Source of the DNA: Mycobacteriales bacterium
GTDB taxonomy: Bacteria > Actinomycetota > Actinomycetes > BP-191
Assembly (NCBI GenBank): GCA_036382875.1
Contig: DASVPJ010000042.1
Location: forward strand, 51,859-115,858
DNA: 64,000 nt
Direction of reading: 5' to 3'
How positions within the stretch are numbered: position 1 is the stretch's first letter; the number at the start of each line of letters is the position of its first letter. Below the pieces are notes generated by a model. It made no database searches. It saw only the letters and a list, made by a program, of their open reading frames with translations, and was not told where the DNA came from. The translations under genes and the position numbers were made by a program. Of the stretch, positions 1 through 45,200 are shown piece after piece.

Positions 1-340
1 CGGCGAGCTCGAGGACGCTGTGGCAGAGCACGATGTCGACGCTGCCGGGCGCCACGACGTCGAGGAGCGTCGCGAGGTCGCCCTGGACGCCGGTGATCGC
101 GGCGCCGGCGCCCTCCTCGGCGGCGCGCTGGGCGAGCGCCGCGAGCGAGTCGGGCGAGGGGTCGACGACGGTGACGCGGTGGCCGAGCCCGGCGAGCGGC
201 ACCGCGAAGCCGCCCGTACCGCCGCCGGCGTCGAGGACCGACAGCGGCCCGTCCCCGAGACCGGCGAGTGCGGCCGTGAGGGCCTCCCAGACGACCGCGT
301 TGCGGACGCGTCCCCAGTGCGTGAGGTACGGCGCGGCCAC
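1..340 (-). CDS. Class I SAM-dependent methyltransferase, 5' part only; the gene continues beyond the window start
   Basis: Minus-strand translation gives VAAPYLTHWGRVRNAVVWEALTAALAGLGDGPLSVLDAGGGTGGFAVPLAGLGHRVTVVDPS..., with the SAM-binding motif LDxGxGxG. A GTG start has GGAGGA 6 nt upstream. Confidence 0.6.
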   Translation of the reverse strand, partial: MAAPYLTHWGRVRNAVVWEALTAALAGLGDGPLSVLDAGGGTGGFAVPLAGLGHRVTVVDPSPDSLAALAQRAAEEGAGAAITGVQGDLATLLDVVAPGSVDIVLCHSVLELA

Positions 341-520
341 GAAGGTCCTCCGGGGACGGGGGCGGCGGGGCGCGAGCGCGCGGGACGGCGTTCGCGTGGT
401 GGGAAGCGTAGTGCGTGGGGGTCGTGGGGCGCCGGGGCGGCGGCGGGTGCCGGGGGTGCGGGTGGGGCGGCGGTGCGGCAGGCGCGGGTCGTGAGGCGGC
501 GGGGGGCGCGGGCGGCGGCG

Positions 521-644: not shown

Positions 645-1340
645 TCATCCGACCCCGCGGTCGAGCAGGGTGGGGCGGGCGGCGCCGCCGAGCTTGGTCT
701 CCACGACGGCGAGGAACGTCTCGGCGTCGCGCAGCAGGTCGTCGGCCTCGCGGGCGGTGACCGCGCCGGGGAGGTGCGCCTCGGCGGCGGCCCGCTTGCG
801 GGCGCCGGAGGCGAAGAACGCGGCCCACTCGCCGAGCTCGGGCGCGACCGTGGCGAGCAGGACCCACGCGCTGAGCGGCCGGGTGCGGCGGGGCGCGGGC
901 GCGGCGGCGGGGCGGGCGCGGGCGGCGATGACCGCCGCCGCCGCGCGCAGGGCGCTGAGGTGGGCGGCGGCGTAGCGGTCGGCGGGGGTGGTGGCGAGCG
1001 CGGCTTCGGCGAGGCCGTGGCGGGCCAGGTCGAGCAGGTCGGACGCCGAGGTGGACAGGCGCGGGATGTCGGCGGCCTTCGCGGTCGGGAGTGGGGTGGG
1101 GCGGGGCGAGGTGGCAGGCGCCGAGGGCGGGGTGGGCGGCGCGGGGGCGGGCGGCGCGGGGGCGGGCGGCGCGGGTGCGGGCGCGGGGGGCGCGGCGGTG
1201 GGCGCGGGCGCGGCGGTGGGCGCGGGGGCGGCCGGCGCGAGGAGGGCGGGTGCGGGTGCCGCGCGGGTGGGCACGGGGGTGGCCGCGTGGGCGCCGCGGC
1301 GGGCGGGCGTGCGGAACGGCAGCGTCGCGGGGGTGGGCAC
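645..1340 (-). CDS. SAV_6107-family HEPN domain protein with a proline/alanine-rich N-terminal repeat region
   Basis: C-terminal region ...ADRYAAAHLSALRAAAAVIAARARP...LSAWVLLATVAPELGEWAAFFASGARKRAAAEAHLPGAVTAREADDLLRDAETFLAVVETKLG matches the conserved pattern of the actinobacterial SAV_6107 HEPN family (recalled from memory). The N-terminus carries PAPAPP repeats. A GTG start has GGAGG 5 nt upstream. Confidence 0.55.
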   Translation of the reverse strand: MPTPATLPFRTPARRGAHAATPVPTRAAPAPALLAPAAPAPTAAPAPTAAPPAPAPAPPAPAPPAPAPPTPPSAPATSPRPTPLPTAKAADIPRLSTSASDLLDLARHGLAEAALATTPADRYAAAHLSALRAAAAVIAARARPAAAPAPRRTRPLSAWVLLATVAPELGEWAAFFASGARKRAAAEAHLPGAVTAREADDLLRDAETFLAVVETKLGGAARPTLLDRGVG

Positions 1341-1543
1341 GGTCGCTCCTTCCTCGTCGGCGTACGGCACGTACGCGGCCGGGGGAAGGCGGCCGTGGCG
1401 GGCCGGTCCGGCGGGGCGCTTCCCCGCACCCTGCCGGACCGGCGGCCGGTCCGGCCCCGCCGAGGGTCGAGGCTCGGCGCGGGCGCGGACCGGGGTCCTC
1501 CGCCAGCGGGTCGGCGTTCGCGAGTGGCGCCGGCCCGGGTGTT

Positions 1544-1559
1544 CGAACGTGTGTTCGAA
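1544..1559. promoter_or_regulatory. Putative LexA SOS box TCGAACGTGTGTTCGA
   Basis: Exact match to the actinobacterial LexA operator consensus TCGAAC-N4-GTTCGA. It sits about 200 bp upstream of the HEPN gene start in a 350-bp intergenic region. Confidence 0.55.
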
Positions 1560-1693
1560 CGAGAGAAAGGTAACGCGGCGGGGCGGGGAGCGCAAGGGGG
1601 TGGTGTTCGCCGTCGGCGAACGCGCCCCGGGGCGGCCCGGGGCGGCCCGGGGCGGCCCGGGGGGCCGCGGGCCGCCCCGCGCGAGGACGTGCC

Positions 1694-3031
1694 TCAGGAG
1701 GGGCGGACGGTCCGGCGCAGGAGGTAGGCGCCGGCGCCGACGTTCAGCAGCGACCCCAACGGCGTCACGGTGACGACGGCGACCGACGCGGACCGGGTGG
1801 CCAGGTCGGACAGCCCGACCAGCGCGAGGCCGAGGACGCCGGACGCGACGAGCAGCACGCCGGCGACCGCGGCGGCCTGCGAGGCCACCGGCGTCCGCGA
1901 CGGCGACGGGGCGAACGCCACCGGCGCCGGCCGCTCCAGCCGCCCGAAGACCGCGACGAGCCCGGCCAGGAGGGCCAGCAGCACCGCGAACCACAGCGGC
2001 CGGGTCAGCCACCACGCACCGGAGCCGACGGCCGGCTGCGGGAACCACCCGCGCGGCAGCAGCACGAACACGGCCAGCAGCAGCGCGGTCAGGTGCCACA
2101 GGAAGACGGTCATGATGACGCCGTTCAGCGCGACGACGGCGGTCCAGACGCGCGGCCGGGCCAGCCAGCGGGTGACGAGCGGCCGGGCGAGGACTACGAG
2201 CCCGACGAGCCACGCGGTCAGCGCGACGATGCAGACGGTCGGCGGGGCCATGTTCGAGACCTTCTCCCCCGGCATCCCGACCATCGACGTCGGGTACGGC
2301 CCCCACGCGGTCAGCGCGACGAGCGCGCCGAGGCCGGTCGCGGACAGCGCCAGCGCGGCGCGGCGCGAGATGGCGCCGTAGAAGTAGCCGAGCTGGTGCG
2401 CGAGCAGCCAGACGGGGACGACGTTCACCCAGCGCAGCCCGGCCATGCCGAGGCCGAACGACGCGACGTCGACCAGCGCGGCGACGAGCGCGAGCGCCGC
2501 GGGCACCCGCCAGCCGTACCGGCGGTGCAGCCGGATCGTCAACGGCGCCAGCGCGACCATGACGACGTACACGCCGAGGAACCACAGGAGCTGCACGACG
2601 AGCTTCGTGACCCGCGCCGACGGCGAGAGCAGCACCGTCAACGGCACCCAGACGCCGAGCAGCACCGACACCGGGCGGAGCAGCCGGGACAGCCGGCCCT
2701 GCACGAAGTGCACGTACCGGCCGCCGCGCCGCCGCACGCCGTCGTAGGTGACGAGGTGCGCGAACCCGCCCACGAAGAAGAACACCGGCATGACCTGGAG
2801 CACCCAGGTCAGCGGCTGGAGCCACGGCATCGCGGCCAGCGCGTTGCCGGCGTGGAACCCCGACGAGTCGAACGTCACCGCCGCCATCAGCCAGTGGCCG
2901 AGGACGACGACGGAGATCGAGAACGCCCGGAGGAAGTCGACGTAGCGGTCCCGCGTCGCGGGCGTCGCGGCGGCAAGGGTGGCGGCACGGCTCATACCGA
3001 CAAGGTTCGGCGCGAACGAAGGCCGGGCCAT
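1694..3031 (-). CDS. Acyltransferase family 3 (OafA/NolL-like) integral membrane acyltransferase
   Basis: 445-aa polytopic membrane protein with the N-terminal motif FLRAFSISVVVLGHW typical of the AT3 family. Confidence 0.75.
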   Translation of the reverse strand: MARPSFAPNLVGMSRAATLAAATPATRDRYVDFLRAFSISVVVLGHWLMAAVTFDSSGFHAGNALAAMPWLQPLTWVLQVMPVFFFVGGFAHLVTYDGVRRRGGRYVHFVQGRLSRLLRPVSVLLGVWVPLTVLLSPSARVTKLVVQLLWFLGVYVVMVALAPLTIRLHRRYGWRVPAALALVAALVDVASFGLGMAGLRWVNVVPVWLLAHQLGYFYGAISRRAALALSATGLGALVALTAWGPYPTSMVGMPGEKVSNMAPPTVCIVALTAWLVGLVVLARPLVTRWLARPRVWTAVVALNGVIMTVFLWHLTALLLAVFVLLPRGWFPQPAVGSGAWWLTRPLWFAVLLALLAGLVAVFGRLERPAPVAFAPSPSRTPVASQAAAVAGVLLVASGVLGLALVGLSDLATRSASVAVVTVTPLGSLLNVGAGAYLLRRTVRPS

Positions 3032-3073: not shown

Positions 3074-4138
3074 GTGCACCCACTCGACGTCGCCGACCTG
3101 CGCGACCGCGTCGACAAGGCGCTCGAGGCGTTCCTCGCGCGGCAGGCGGCGACGCTCGACGCGGTCTCCGACGACCTCGGCCCGGTCGCCGACACGGTCA
3201 CGGAGTTCGTCCTCGACGGCGGCAAGCGGCTGCGCCCGGCGTTCTGCTACTGGGGCTGGCGCGGCGCGGGCGGCGCGGACACCGACGACATCGTGACCGC
3301 GGCGGCGTGCCTGGAGCTGGTGCACGCGTGCGCCCTCATCCACGACGACGTGATGGACGGCTCGGACACCCGGCGCGGGAAGCCGGCGGTGCACCGGCGG
3401 TTCGCGAGCCTGCACCGCGGCGAGCAGTGGCTCGGCGACGCGGAGACGTTCGGGCGCAACGCCGCGATCCTGCTCGGCGACATCTGCCTGGTCTGGGCCG
3501 ACGAGCTCTACGACTCCAGCGGGCTGCCGGCCGAGGCGCTGCACCGCGCGGCGCACACGTACGGCGTGATGCGCGCGGAGGTGATGGCCGGCCAGTACCT
3601 CGACGTGCTGGAGCAGGTCCGCGGCGGTGGCGACGTCGAGCGGGCGCTGCGCGTCGCGCGCTTCAAGAGCGCGAAGTACACGATCGAACGCCCGCTGCAC
3701 CTCGGCGGCGTCCTGGCCGGCGCGGACCAGCGGGTGCTCGACGCGTACAGCGCGTACGGCCTCCCGCTCGGCGAGGCGTTCCAGCTCCGCGACGACGTGC
3801 TCGGCGTGTTCGGCGACCCGCGGCAGACCGGCAAGCCGGCCGGAGACGACCTGCGCGAGGGCAAGCGCACGGTGCTCATCGCCAAGGCCAGCGAGCGCGC
3901 GACGCCGGGCCAGGCCGCGGTGCTGCGCCGCCTGCTCGGCGACCCCAAGCTGGAGCACGCCGGCGTCGAACGCCTCCGCGAGGTCATCGCCGAGACCGGC
4001 GCGCTCGACTACGCCGAGGCCCTGGTCCGCCAGCGCGCGGCCGAGGCGATCGAGGCGATCGAGAACGCCCCCATCGACGGCGAGGCCACGAAGGTCCTGC
4101 GCGCGCTCGCCACCATCGCGACCCAACGCGTGCATTGA
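3074..4138 (+). CDS. crtE: Polyprenyl synthetase, geranylgeranyl diphosphate synthase
   Basis: Polyprenyl synthetase Asp-rich motifs (ALIHDDVMDGSDTRRGKP, FQLRDDVLGVFGD). Lies in a carotenoid context next to crtI. Confidence 0.8.
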   Translation: MHPLDVADLRDRVDKALEAFLARQAATLDAVSDDLGPVADTVTEFVLDGGKRLRPAFCYWGWRGAGGADTDDIVTAAACLELVHACALIHDDVMDGSDTRRGKPAVHRRFASLHRGEQWLGDAETFGRNAAILLGDICLVWADELYDSSGLPAEALHRAAHTYGVMRAEVMAGQYLDVLEQVRGGGDVERALRVARFKSAKYTIERPLHLGGVLAGADQRVLDAYSAYGLPLGEAFQLRDDVLGVFGDPRQTGKPAGDDLREGKRTVLIAKASERATPGQAAVLRRLLGDPKLEHAGVERLREVIAETGALDYAEALVRQRAAEAIEAIENAPIDGEATKVLRALATIATQRVH

Positions 4139-39504: not shown

Positions 39505-40260
39505 GTGCCGGTCCAGCCCGGGTGCGAGGCGTTCTCGTTCGACGGCGGTGCCGTCGGCGCGCTGATGGTGCACGGGTTCACCGGGTCGCCGTTCTCGATG
39601 CGCCCCTGGGGCGAGTACCTCGCCCAGCACGGCCTCACCGTCGCGGGGCCGCGGCTGCCCGGCCACGGCACCCGCTGGCAGGAGATGAACCTCACCCGCT
39701 GGCAGGACTGGTACGGCGAGGTCGAGCGGGCGTTCGACGCGCTGCGCGGCCGCTGCGACCAGGTGTTCGTCATGGGCCTGTCGATGGGCGGGACGCTGAC
39801 GTTGCGGCTCGGCGAGGAGCGCGGCGACGACGTCGCGGGCCTGGTGACCGTCAACGCGTCGCTGCTGACCGAGCGCAAGGACGCGAAGCTGCTCCCCTAC
39901 GTCTCCAAGGTCGTGCCGTCGCTCAAGGCGATCGGCGACGACATCAAGCTGCCCGGCGTCACCGAGCGCGCGTACGACCGCACGCCGCTGCGCGCCGCGG
40001 CGTCGCTCGCGCAGCTCTGGCGCGTCGTCCGCGAGGACCTGTCCAAGATCACTCAGCCGCTGCTGGTCTTCCGCTCGGCCGAGGACCACGTGGTCGAGCC
40101 GGCGTCGGGCGCGTTGCTGATGCGCTCGGTGTCGTCGACGGACGTGCGCGAGATCGTGCTGACGGACTCGTACCACGTGGCCACGCTGGACAACGACGCG
40201 CCGCTGATCTTCGCGGAGAGCCTGGCGTTCGTGCGGGCGCACGCGGAGGCGAAGGCGTGA
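39505..40260 (+). CDS. Alpha/beta hydrolase (carboxylesterase/lysophospholipase-like)
   Basis: GxSxG nucleophile elbow GLSMGG. GTG start with a GAGGAGG RBS. Confidence 0.7.
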   Translation: MPVQPGCEAFSFDGGAVGALMVHGFTGSPFSMRPWGEYLAQHGLTVAGPRLPGHGTRWQEMNLTRWQDWYGEVERAFDALRGRCDQVFVMGLSMGGTLTLRLGEERGDDVAGLVTVNASLLTERKDAKLLPYVSKVVPSLKAIGDDIKLPGVTERAYDRTPLRAAASLAQLWRVVREDLSKITQPLLVFRSAEDHVVEPASGALLMRSVSSTDVREIVLTDSYHVATLDNDAPLIFAESLAFVRAHAEAKA

Positions 40261-42288: not shown

Positions 42289-45200
42289 CTAGGCGGGCAG
42301 CATCGAACGCAGCCTCACGTCGAGGCCCGGGGGCGCGTCGAGGTCGGCCAGCAACGCCGCCACCGGCTCCTCCACCCGCGCCGCGGCCGGCTCCTCCCCC
42401 GCGCGGCGCAGCGACTCGGCCTGCCACACCAGCGCCCGCGCCAGCCAGACGGTGGCGCCGAGCTCCGCCCAGGCCGTCGCCGCGCGCTCGAACGCCGCCG
42501 CCGCGTCGGCCGGCGACGACGCGCGCAGCAGGCGCAGGCCGTCGTTCTCGGCGGCCGTCGCGTGCGTCTCGGCCAGGTCGCCCGACGTGGGCGCCAGCGT
42601 CGCGGAGCCGGCGACGCCACCGAGCAGCGAGAGCTGCTCCAGGCAGGCCGCGGCCAGCGCGCCGTACCGCGCGGTGTCGTGCCGGCGCGCGGCGTCCATC
42701 GCCTCGGCGACGAGCGACTCGGCGCGGTCCGAGCCGTCGGCGACCGCGCAGCGCGCCTGCACGATCCGCATGCCGGTAGCCGAGAGCGACCAGCCGCTCG
42801 ACTCGGCGCGGTCGACGGCGCGGTCGGCGAGCGCCGCGCCCTCGGCCCAGCGGCCCGAGTCCATGAGCAGCTCGGCCTCGTAGAAGAGCACGGTGAGCTC
42901 GGCGGTGCGCTCCCCGATCCGGGCCAGCGCGGCGCGGCCGTCGCCGAGCTGCTGGCGGGCCAGCGCGGCCCGCCGCGAACGCAGCGCGGCGCGCGAGGCG
43001 TTGACCAGCGCGACCGCGCGCAGCCGCGCCGAGCCGAGCGAGTCGGCCCGCGCGAGCAGCTCGCCGAGCACCCGGTCGCTCTCGTCCAGCCGGCCCAGCG
43101 CGGACAGGCACTCCTGCTGGATCAGCAGCCCGTCGATCTCCCGCCACCGCGCGCCCGACTCGGTGGCGTCGGCCTGCGCCAGCACGGCCGCCTCCAACGC
43201 GGCGCCGAGGTCGCCGCGGTACTGCAGGTGGAACGCCAGCGCGCAGCGCACCTCCGCCCGCCCCCGCAGCTCCGCCTCGCTGCGCGCGGAGGCCTCGGCG
43301 AGGCCGTACCAGCGGCGGAACTCCGCGCCACCGGCCGGCGACAGCAGGTACGCGAGGAACCGCGCGACCGCCGCCTGCCCCGCCTCGTCGCCGGCCTGCC
43401 GGTACAGGTCGTACGCCTCCCGCAGCAGCCTGGTCATCTGCGGCAGGTCGTCGAAGCGGAGGTTCTCCGCCGCCTGGAACGTCGCCGCCGCCAGCAGCCC
43501 CACGTCGCCCGCCCGCTGGAGCAGCGCCACCGCCTCCGCGTGCAGCTCGCGCGCCCGGTCCAGCCGCGACACGTGCGACAGCGACACCGAGTGCGCGAGC
43601 AGCGCGCGGGCGCGCAGCACGCCGTCGCCGACCGCGTCGGCCAGCGCCTCGGCGGCCTGCAGGTCCTCGATGGCGTCGCCGAAGCGGAGCAGCTCGTTCA
43701 ACGCCGTCGCCCGCTCCACGAGCAGCGTCGCGTAGACGTCGTCGGAGATGCACTGCCGCGACGACTGCGCGACGTCCACCGCCTGCGACAGCGCCGCCTC
43801 GGCCGCGCGCGCCTGGTGCCGGTAGAGCGAGCGCCCCCAGGCGAGCAGGTGCCGCACCGCGAGCCGGGCGAGGTCGCAGGACGGCTGCACGCCGGCCGTG
43901 TCCGAGCGGGCCAGCGAGTACGCCTGGTGGTAGTGGTACGCGAGCAGCGCGACCGGCGGGCTCGCCCCGGCCGACAGCCACTCGGCGACCACCGTGTGCA
44001 GCGCGGACCGGTCGCGGCGGGACAGCGACTCGTACGCCACGTCGCGGATGAGCACGTGCTTGAAGACGTACTCGTCGCCGGACACCCGGCGCAGCAGGCC
44101 GCGGTCGACCAGCGCGTCGAGCGCGTCGCCGAGGTGCGGCTCGTCCGACATCGCCGCGAGCACCCCGGCGGCGAACGTGTCGCCGGCCACGGAGGCGCGT
44201 TGCAGCAGGCGCTTCTCGGCCGGCGAGAGGCTGTCGAGGCGCGCGGCGATGAACATGCGCATGGAGTTCGGGACGCGGCGGACCTGCGTCGCGTCGGCGT
44301 CGACCCCGCCGACGCCGCGCGAGATGCCGCCGGTCTCCAGCAGCATCCGGGTGCACTCCTCGAGGAACAGCGGGTTGCCGCCGGCCCGGTTCAGCAACGC
44401 CGCGGCGAGCCAGTCCGGCGGCTCCACGCCGAGCAGGTCGGCGAGCAGCGTCCGCATGTCCTCGTCCGGCAGCGCGCCAAGCTCGCGGGACGGCAGCGGC
44501 CGCGGCGGCTCGAGCTCGGGCCGGGCCAGCGCGAGGACGAGCACGGGCGCGTCGAGCGGCGCGGCGTCGAGCGCGCAGACCGCGTCGACCAGCTCCTGGT
44601 CGGCCCACTGCAGGTCGTCCACCAGCAGGATCACCGGCTGCGCCGCGGCGGCCGCGACGAGCACCGCGCGCAGCGCCGCGACCTCCGCCTCGGCGGAACG
44701 TTCGCCGGCCGAGCCGAGCAGGTACGCCACCCGGGCGGCGAGCGCCGGCGAGTCGCCGAACACCCGCCGGACCGCCGCCGTGACCTCGGGCTCCGGCGCG
44801 TCCGGCGGCACGCCGAGGTGCGTCGCGACCGCGTCCACGACCGCCTGCAACGGCCGCCGCCGCCCGTACGGCGTGCACCGCCCGCGCAGCGCGGTGACGC
44901 CCGCCCGCCGGGACAGGAACTCCGCGGCGAGCCGGCTCTTCCCCTGCCCCGCCTCGCCGCTGACGACGAGCACCCGCGAACGCCGCGCGGCCACCATGTC
45001 GTCCAGTGCCGCGTGCAGGTGACCGAGCGCGTCGCGGCGGCCGACGAACACCCCGGTCGGCGGCCGCGCGACGGCGCGGGCGTCCAGGCCGAGCAGCTCG
45101 TGCACCACGACCTTGTCCGCGAGCCCGCGCAGCCGGACCGCCCGGCCGGGCCCGAACCGCAGCCCCGGCCCGGCCAGCTCCACCGTCCGCTCGCCGACGA

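Follow-up and report, generated by a model that had tools for sequence, protein, structure and literature searches.

What does a perfect LexA site control when it stands about 200 bp upstream of a gene of the SAV_6107 HEPN family? The question arises in a 64-kb stretch of DNA from a Mycobacteriales bacterium (contig DASVPJ010000042.1, positions 51,859 to 115,858; hereafter the window). Here, the 353-bp gap between two minus-strand genes, at 1694..3031 (Acyl_transf_3) and 645..1340 (HEPN), contains the 16-nucleotide core TCGAAC-GTGT-GTTCGA (TCGAACGTGTGTTCGA) at 1543-1558. A first reading of the letters (the original prediction) had placed a LexA box at 1543-1560; the site was correctly recognized and only the numbering was out by one base, the 18-nucleotide palindrome TTCGAACGTGTGTTCGAA spanning 1542-1559. 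From sequence comparison, we consider it probable that the box is a genuine LexA operator and that it leads a damage-inducible transcript comprising a folded leader, the HEPN gene and, probably, genes for a methyltransferase and DinB.

The LexA box is unique in the window and conserved among orthologues

All of our evidence is comparative, and the organism is known only from a metagenome contig. Starting from an alignment of 26 homologues, 80 orthologous loci were fetched from one-genome-per-species bacterial contigs. These are the best-scoring of 522 confirmed relatives, and the proportions given below describe that sample. It includes Frankiaceae, Geodermatophilaceae, Pseudonocardiaceae, Nocardioidaceae, Propionibacteriaceae, Kineosporiaceae, Streptomyces and many uncultured Actinomycetota.

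The 1543-1558 site is the sole perfect match to TCGAAC-N4-GTTCGA in the 64-kb window. The number expected by chance was estimated from 100 dinucleotide-preserving shuffles of the window; the mean was 0.01 perfect boxes per window, with only one of the shuffles containing any. Sites with up to two mismatches occurred at the chance level (3 observed against 2.42 expected), and two such near-boxes, at 39722 and 52401, were rejected, being both chance-level in number and within stretches under long open reading frames. On the source contig (ENA ERZ27253064) the box is the only one with two or fewer mismatches in 10.7 kb.

The original prediction had staked itself on the box recurring upstream of orthologues, and this was clearly the case. 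Across the 80 loci, a perfect box was found upstream of the HEPN gene at 58, a box with one mismatch at 14 and a box with two mismatches at one, so that all 73 non-Streptomyces loci with upstream sequence have a box with no more than two mismatches. Two of the 80 loci are truncated and hence uninformative. None of the five Streptomyces loci has an SOS box upstream of the HEPN gene. With this site and the dinB boxes excluded, just two boxes with one mismatch or fewer were found in the remaining ∼650 kb of sequence. These data support a strong, non-chance LexA-type operator, placed where it would repress the SAV_6107-family promoter.

In seven Propionibacteriaceae loci (L031, L038, L040, L041, L048, L066 and L079) there is a second perfect box, TATCGAACA-N3-GTTCGATA, between the HEPN stop codon and dinB, at approximately +420 from the start of the HEPN match. 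As HEPN and dinB own separate boxes in this family, the HEPN gene is likely to be a LexA target itself rather than merely lying upstream of one. LexA control of the SAV_6107-family gene is thus well supported at the level of sequence.

The box directly follows a conserved −10 element

When 79 loci were aligned using the box as an anchor, a TAnnnT hexamer was seen at a near-fixed offset, ending 8–10 nucleotides before the box. In the window this hexamer is TACCTT and the box begins 8 nucleotides after it. The sequence CTTGC(G/A)C is kept at the −35 position in the six closest relatives. With this geometry, LexA bound at the box would cover the transcription start site.

Directly upstream of the box, 40 of 64 relatives have an exact match to the PafBC −26 element, TGTC[AGC][GC]-N10-TAnnnT. 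The motif recognized in mycobacteria is TGTCGG-N10-TA-N3-T (PMC8151990; also PMC8635444), and dual control by LexA and PafBC is established for mycobacterial recA, dnaE2 and imuA′/imuB (PMC8682763; PMC8223512). The ancestral form of the module would therefore seem to have carried both known actinobacterial damage inputs, LexA and PafBC.

The five Streptomyces loci (L005, L039, L046, L054 and L065), from the lineage that gives SAV_6107 its name, lack the SOS box, the DUF6504 gene described below and the leader motif. They share a conserved sequence, TGTCAGTGG-N7-CACGAT, at ∼3806-3880, which resembles a PafBC −26 promoter with a modified −26 element and sits 60–80 nucleotides upstream of the HEPN start codon at all five loci.

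On the other side of the promoter, directly after the acyltransferase stop codon (1694), the window has a period-10 repeat, GCGGCCCGGG, present in 5.8 copies at 1622-1679. The repeat forms GC hairpins without a T tract, and might act as a terminator for the acyltransferase gene, shielding the SOS promoter.

The transcript is predicted to begin with a structured leader

The distance between box and start codon had been taken to suggest either an unannotated leader or a different start codon. It is the leader that finds support. An independent gene caller, run on the source contig, also starts the gene at the GTG at 1340, and the Shine-Dalgarno sequence GAGGAAGGAG is identical in L001, L002, L082, L083 and L085. 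Because gene caller, Shine-Dalgarno sequence and closest relatives all agree, the distance of ∼200 bp is real and does not reflect a mis-called start.

In the window and its relatives, the stretch 3′ of the box is better conserved than the adjoining coding N-terminus, and its insertions and deletions are not multiples of three. The 222-nucleotide leader of the window has a predicted folding energy of −140.2 kcal/mol (z −4.69). We looked for hairpins supported by covariation, using both single-sequence folds and plain sequence alignments as checks that are independent of the covariance models, because an alignment made with a model is biased in favour of the structure that was modelled.

The most widespread element is the hairpin HP1, whose loop motif occurs in 65 of 79 loci; when sequences were folded singly, UCGACC was found capping a long stem at 60 of 64 loci. 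In an ungapped seed of 20 sequences, 97.7% of cells were paired compared with 57% in shuffles, and there were 107 two-sided changes, affecting all 15 pairs, compared with 30.5 in shuffles (observed value reached by 0/500). For 46 distinct model-aligned sequences, pairing reached 96.9%, and two-sided changes numbered 241 where shuffles gave 64 (0/500). Slid controls for hairpin covariation gave ∼45% pairing. The loop itself is invariant (48/48). G·U pairs outnumber A·C pairs by 63 to 13, which points to the sense transcript as the folded strand. RNAalifold applied to a plain MAFFT alignment of 64 HP1 segments gave no pairs, the stems being out of register, a problem that was overcome with the ungapped seed and a covariance model (R1).

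A second hairpin, HP2, folds in all 31 loci that carry its GGGGAA motif. Here a plain sequence alignment (A7) gave 75.6% paired cells and 86 two-sided changes, where shuffles gave 62.1% and 38 (0/500). Downstream of HP2, 27 of 36 loci have the sequence CUUCCCCC, either as a small hairpin (HP3) or as a single strand. Its complement occurs in the HP2 loop (GGGGAAG) and again in the Shine-Dalgarno core (GGAAGG), and the element is mostly located 43–50 nucleotides before a strong Shine-Dalgarno sequence and start codon (14 of the 22 loci at which scanning detected a Shine-Dalgarno sequence). In the window this distance is +33, and the minimum-free-energy fold pairs CCUUCC of the element with the Shine-Dalgarno sequence. 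A further hairpin next to the box in the window, P0, has the loop ACUCGCGAA; a similar loop, CUCGCGG, occurs in L003, L025, L035 and L042.

A covariance model of the whole motif (R2) was built from 14 loci with the window clade left out. R2 matched the window full-length at 1375-1505 on the minus strand (33.2 bits, E 0.0023), its only match there, and gave 72–91 bits on the independent loci L087–L089. The hairpins are combined differently among loci: all three are found in a minority, which includes the window, Pseudonocardiaceae-type loci have HP2 and HP3 only, and a few loci have none. Rfam 15 gave no credible match, either for window 1000-2000 (E up to 10) or for eight related loci (E up to 1). 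Pattern searches of metagenomes for the leader gave no match with a strict pattern and three loci with a second; the metagenome locus L086 was discarded as a chance match.

Conservation and folding together lead us to read the 200-bp gap as a structured leader RNA that has been conserved and that, with its clear covariation, is a strong candidate for a new class of cis-regulatory RNA. The UCGACC loop could plausibly be a protein-binding site, possibly for the encoded proteins themselves.

Pairing of the HP1 loop with a downstream GGUCGAGG sequence, found in 30 loci, was also considered and was rejected for the window. This sequence often lies within the DUF6504 coding sequence (PVEV codons) and is absent from the window clade, so it cannot explain HP1 here. 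In L006, L012, L016, L018, L033, L034, L047 and L084, the codons for the conserved DUF6504 N-terminus ...DDPVEV... read CCGGUCGAGGUG, a complement to the HP1 loop CCUCGACC; other loci have a copy of GGGGUCGAG just 3′ of HP1, where a pseudoknot could form. Neither arrangement is seen in the window clade. Elsewhere in the window, a plus-strand hairpin at 44285-44321, GCGUCGGCG-UCGACCC-CGCCGACGC, has an HP1-type UCGACC loop (R1 23.7 bits, E 0.038); it is within a long open reading frame and may be a chance occurrence.

The HEPN protein lacks the canonical catalytic motif

Assignment of the gene product to the SAV_6107 family was borne out by a profile search: Pfam PF18726 (HEPN_SAV_6107) matched residues 113-214 over the full profile (1-98) with an E value of 3.9e-33 and 114.3 bits, the cut-off being 27.2. 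NCBIfam gave no match for the HEPN protein or for DUF6504, and profile searches of both families against PDB sequences gave nothing meaningful. In the AlphaFold model the HEPN domain is mostly above pLDDT 90. The best PDB fold matches are themselves HEPN domains (1wol, 2hsb and 3o10, including sacsin), albeit weak ones, with E values of 0.13–0.4 and target-normalized TM-scores (TMt) of 0.51–0.66.

The domain is highly conserved, with 49 invariant columns in the 26 aligned sequences. In the 2013 survey of HEPN domains, SAV_6107 is placed in the group HEPN-M, with Rx4-6H conservation given as ‘No’ and no gene-context association (PMC3710099). Consistent with this, the last helix (196-216) starts with an invariant READDLLRD and has no histidine, so the canonical Rx4-6H motif is absent from it. 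The first domain helix does have an invariant R-x4-H (RYAAAH, R122-H127). Here, HEPN should not be equated with ‘RNase toxin’.

Residues 1 to ∼98 form a disordered, Pro/Ala-rich N-terminus. This extension is encoded by nested tandem repeats with periods of 15, 27, 51 and 81 (window 1129-1309), and its length varies among close relatives. Most family members are without it, at ∼140 amino acids in total. It is found in the HEPN proteins of the window clade, where DUF6504 is missing.

HEPN genes travel with DUF6504 and translesion polymerases

A DUF6504 gene separates the box from the HEPN gene at 52 of the 80 loci (PF20114; in the L067 example, E 1.8e-16). Modelled with AlphaFold, DUF6504 reached a pLDDT of 47.8, and the model was unusable. 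Public DUF6504 gene calls (P0212 and P0213) run upstream over the SOS box and HP1, giving spurious N-termini such as MAFEHMFEVWPGGGCFDPILHRA, where the box itself has been translated as FEHMFE.

Downstream of the HEPN gene, a translesion-type polymerase gene on the same strand, either a DnaE2-like PolIIIα or DinB, was present at 65 of 80 loci. A PolIIIα homologue was found at 42 loci, a methyltransferase followed by DinB at 13, and DinB directly after HEPN or nearby at 10. A methyltransferase alone was found at 10 loci, among them all five Streptomyces, whose HEPN genes are followed by a methyltransferase and not by a polymerase. Gene order was uninformative at the remaining five loci. The gene upstream of the module differs among loci. 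Cultured relatives with the module include Klenkia, Modestobacter and Nocardioides marmorisolisilvae.

The best NCBIfam match of the PolIIIα homologue was ‘error-prone DNA polymerase’, at 653 bits, which is under the model cut-off. It falls below both NCBIfam cut-offs (DnaE2, 653 of 939; DnaE1, 644 of 1002), and may represent a distinct subgroup. In the gene-called loci L087–L089 it has 1,258–1,314 amino acids (e.g. L087:4529-8470). In L004 and L055, DinB follows the PolIIIα homologue, as in the dnaE2-dinB2 arrangement of Streptomyces.

On the source contig (149 kb; L090), the HEPN gene is followed by a 304-bp spacer, the methyltransferase (249 amino acids), 27 bp, IMS/DinB (425 amino acids) and DUF3040. 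The window ends within the methyltransferase gene, whose GTG start is at 340-342. In the close relative L081, the DinB homologue passes the NCBIfam cut-off for DNA polymerase IV (406 bits against 367) and has the catalytic motif DMDAFYASVE; this Y-family protein thus scores as polymerase IV and not as ImuB. Throughout the window clade, HEPN is found in chromosomal synteny between idsA-like and DUF3040 genes.

The spacer between HEPN and methyltransferase (345-645) contains a period-9 tandem repeat, GCGGGCGGC, in 13 copies at 427-571, which is C-rich and G-poor on the sense (minus) strand. An open reading frame that overlaps the HEPN stop codon (ATGA) would encode MTAAPDAAGAATLLLLAAPAVYLTLVAARAARAAR...; it was not predicted by the gene caller. 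The features of the module in the window are collected in Table 1.

Table 1. Features of the HEPN module in the window, with positions, strand and the basis on which each was assigned
Feature	Position	Strand	Basis
Class I S-adenosylmethionine methyltransferase gene start, runs off the window	1..342	-	phmmer match to the methyltransferase of relatives
SAV_6107-family HEPN gene, 231 amino acids	645..1340	-	Pfam PF18726
Shine-Dalgarno sequence GAGGAAGGAG	1346..1355	-	5 nucleotides before the GTG start
HP3 / anti-Shine-Dalgarno element, CUUCCCCC at 1381-1388	1375..1394	-	Conservation, complementarity
Three-hairpin leader motif (closing stem UGGCGG/CCGCCA, HP1, HP2, HP3)	1375..1505	-	Model R2
Leader hairpin HP2, loop GGGGAA at 1420-1425	1402..1443	-	Folds, covariation
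Leader hairpin HP1, loop CCUCGACC at 1465-1472	1446..1493	-	Folds, covariation
Leader hairpin P0, loop ACUCGCGAA	1507..1537	-	Minimum-free-energy fold; DNA-level conservation in the window clade
LexA SOS box TCGAAC-N4-GTTCGA, perfect palindrome	1543..1558	.	Consensus match, conservation
−10 hexamer TACCTT (TAnnnT type)	1567..1572	-	Box-anchored alignment of 79 loci
−35-like hexamer TTGCGC	1590..1595	-	Read from sequence; 17 nucleotides upstream of the −10

A model for damage-inducible expression

We propose the following sequence of events. In undamaged cells, LexA would bind just downstream of the −10 hexamer, overlapping the transcription start, and block the minus-strand promoter. Following DNA damage, LexA cleavage stimulated by RecA would allow the promoter to fire. 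The transcript would open with the leader of ∼200 nucleotides, folding into the conserved three-hairpin RNA, and would continue through the HEPN coding sequence and then, most probably on the same transcript, the methyltransferase and DNA polymerase IV (DinB). Across the Actinomycetota, the same promoter, box and leader would head DUF6504, HEPN and then a DnaE2-like polymerase or DinB. The most likely function of the leader is to set translation or stability of the first gene: with CUUCCCCC paired to the ribosome-binding site expression would be off, and with CUUCCCCC paired to the GGGGAA loop of HP2 it would be on. Given the operons shared across Actinomycetota, we take the HEPN protein to be, most plausibly, an accessory or regulatory partner of the translesion polymerases and not an RNase.

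A number of observations weigh against this model, several of them peculiar to the window. The PafBC element TGTC(G/A)(G/C)-N10-TAnnnT is not found in the window, having been lost there and in the nearest relatives, which have TTGCGC (1595-1590), 17 nucleotides and TACCTT (1572-1567) in its place; as a result, LexA alone appears to be the damage input in the window. A scan for E. coli-type promoters and terminators returned nothing in window 1250-1750, so that the promoter call follows actinobacterial TAnnnT logic and conservation. No remnant of DUF6504 was found in the window clade (all frames) or in the whole 64 kb. With both DUF6504 and the PafBC element missing, the window is an atypical member; it holds a reduced form of the module that also has DinB instead of DnaE2. 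The repeat-rich 304-bp spacer between HEPN and methyltransferase makes co-transcription with dinB uncertain. The HP1 copy of the window has diverged (15.6 bits with R1), and the full leader scores just ∼33 bits with R2. The loops that would pair with each other in the proposed switch step are invariant, and their pairing is consequently without support from covariation. Finally, the invariant R-x4-H of the HEPN protein leaves catalysis possible.

The last point bears on the role that was first suggested for this gene, that of an SOS-induced toxic RNase acting in toxin-antitoxin systems, abortive infection or dormancy. RNA cleavage would then be coupled, through the box, to DNA damage or prophage induction. 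As a loose precedent, a toxin-antitoxin pair, yafNO, is likewise part of the dinB operon of E. coli. The HEPN fold, the Pfam membership and the R-x4-H at residues 122-127 are all compatible with such a function, and PADLOC gave a sole match, to the defence candidate PDC-M05B, which is weak (20.5 bits, E 9e-5). Against this, the R-x4-H is in the first helix of the domain and the last begins with READDLLRD, in a family marked as lacking a conserved Rx4-6H (PMC3710099). No MNT or antitoxin-like gene is adjacent: in the window the HEPN gene is flanked by genes for an acyltransferase and a methyltransferase, and elsewhere by DUF6504, the usual partner, and by polymerases. No homologues were found on 72,556 plasmids or among 50,697 phages, and chromosomal synteny is conserved over many families. 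The toxin, defence and RNase readings are therefore weakly supported, and we think it unlikely that the protein is an RNase of this kind. A role tied to the translesion polymerases is the better supported inference, one drawn from the gene neighbourhood alone.

That neighbourhood could itself be given another meaning, namely that the box serves dinB or dnaE2 only and that HEPN, with DUF6504 where present, is a passenger of unrelated function. There is one SOS box for the entire HEPN–methyltransferase–DinB block on the source contig, and SOS control has been published for the dnaE2-dinB2 operon in Streptomyces (PMC3273824) and for dnaE2 in mycobacteria (PMC8682763). A passenger would not be expected to persist as HEPN does, pairing with DnaE2-like polymerases, with methyltransferase and DinB or with DinB alone across many actinobacterial families, nor to be so highly conserved in its domain. 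Moreover, the Propionibacteriaceae HEPN gene keeps its own box despite the second perfect box for dinB, and the Streptomyces gene, apart from any polymerase, still has a PafBC-type damage promoter. We regard the passenger explanation as improbable. It is very improbable indeed that the box is a chance palindrome and the leader hairpins non-functional GC-rich palindromes, whether repeats or remnants of an acyltransferase terminator. The window is 75% G+C with many tandem repeats and hairpins, and model R1 also scores unrelated GC hairpins. However, only 0.01 boxes are expected per window, and the hairpins lie downstream of promoter and box, away from an upstream gene that varies among loci. Their invariant loops, covarying stems (unmatched in 500 shuffles, and with slid controls at ∼45%) and strand-specific G·U excess, together with leader conservation that exceeds that of the adjoining coding N-terminus, all point to a functional RNA.

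Returning to the preferred model of a damage-inducible operon with a folded leader, we can extend it in a more speculative direction. DUF6504 and the SAV_6107-type HEPN protein might be unrecognized accessory subunits or gatekeepers of DnaE2-like and DinB polymerases, playing a part like that of ImuA/ImuB or UmuD. Their synthesis might be gated twice, at transcription by LexA and PafBC and afterwards by a new class of leader RNA, its invariant UCGACC and GGGGAA loops acting as sensors of a protein or of some small signal related to damage. This proposal is tentative, and we would not be surprised to see it fail.

The mutagenesis that DnaE2- and DinB-type polymerases bring about after DNA damage is a driver of drug resistance in actinobacteria, mycobacteria included, and its accessory factors are only partly known. 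The DUF6504 and HEPN pair, travelling with polymerase genes phylum-wide and sitting behind a promoter with both damage-response signals and a conserved folded leader, offers concrete candidates for the missing parts. Two families of ‘unknown function’, PF18726 and PF20114, thereby become the subject of testable hypotheses.

Comparison with known systems

The original prediction knew of no description of the SAV_6107 family as part of the LexA regulon, and we likewise found no literature linking the two. For SAV_6107 itself we found only the 2013 survey (PMC3710099), and nothing on DUF6504, on DnaE2 together with HEPN, or on the leader RNA. In the searched text and supplementary tables of the S. 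venezuelae LexA study (PMC9380542), no SAV_6107-family protein appears; the tables do not name the orthologue.

The locus otherwise resembles the actinobacterial LexA regulon closely. It has the same exact consensus, TCGAAC-N4-GTTCGA (PMC9380542; PMC8682763), the site would overlap the promoter and start site as it does at recA, dnaE2 and imuA′, and there is a translesion polymerase downstream here too. It differs in that the first gene is a SAV_6107-family HEPN gene, whose Streptomyces orthologues are without the box. In relation to the PafBC (RecA-NDp) promoters of mycobacteria, 40 of 64 relatives share the exact −26/−10 motif, whereas the window does not; the module of the relatives resembles mycobacterial dnaE2 and imuA′/imuB (PMC8682763) in its predicted dual SOS and PafBC control.

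Similarities to HEPN-MNT type II toxin-antitoxin modules and to HEPN RNases are limited to the superfamily, with its four-helix-bundle fold. In contrast to those modules, there is no MNT, no Rx4-6H at the canonical helix and no location on mobile elements, and synteny is vertically conserved.

The leader can be compared with 5′ leaders that sequester the Shine-Dalgarno sequence, such as riboswitch platforms and RNA thermometers. As in these, a pyrimidine-rich anti-Shine-Dalgarno element lies at a conserved distance from a strong Shine-Dalgarno sequence, and an alternative partner, the GGGGAA loop, could free the latter. Unlike these, the leader corresponds to no known ligand or aptamer class and has no Rfam match, and its most conserved element, the UCGACC loop of HP1, is without an assigned partner in the window clade.

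The closest parallels are the imuA-imuB-dnaE2 cassette and the Streptomyces dnaE2-dinB2 operon, in which, as would be the case here, a damage-inducible operon has small accessory genes before an error-prone polymerase. The genes upstream of the polymerase are different, being DUF6504 and HEPN rather than ImuA/ImuA′ or the Y-family-like ImuB, and the window departs further from the cassette in having DinB behind a methyltransferase, with no DUF6504 and no DnaE2. As far as comparison can tell, the module would therefore be one more damage-inducible polymerase cassette, set apart by its accessory genes and by a new candidate cis-regulatory RNA.

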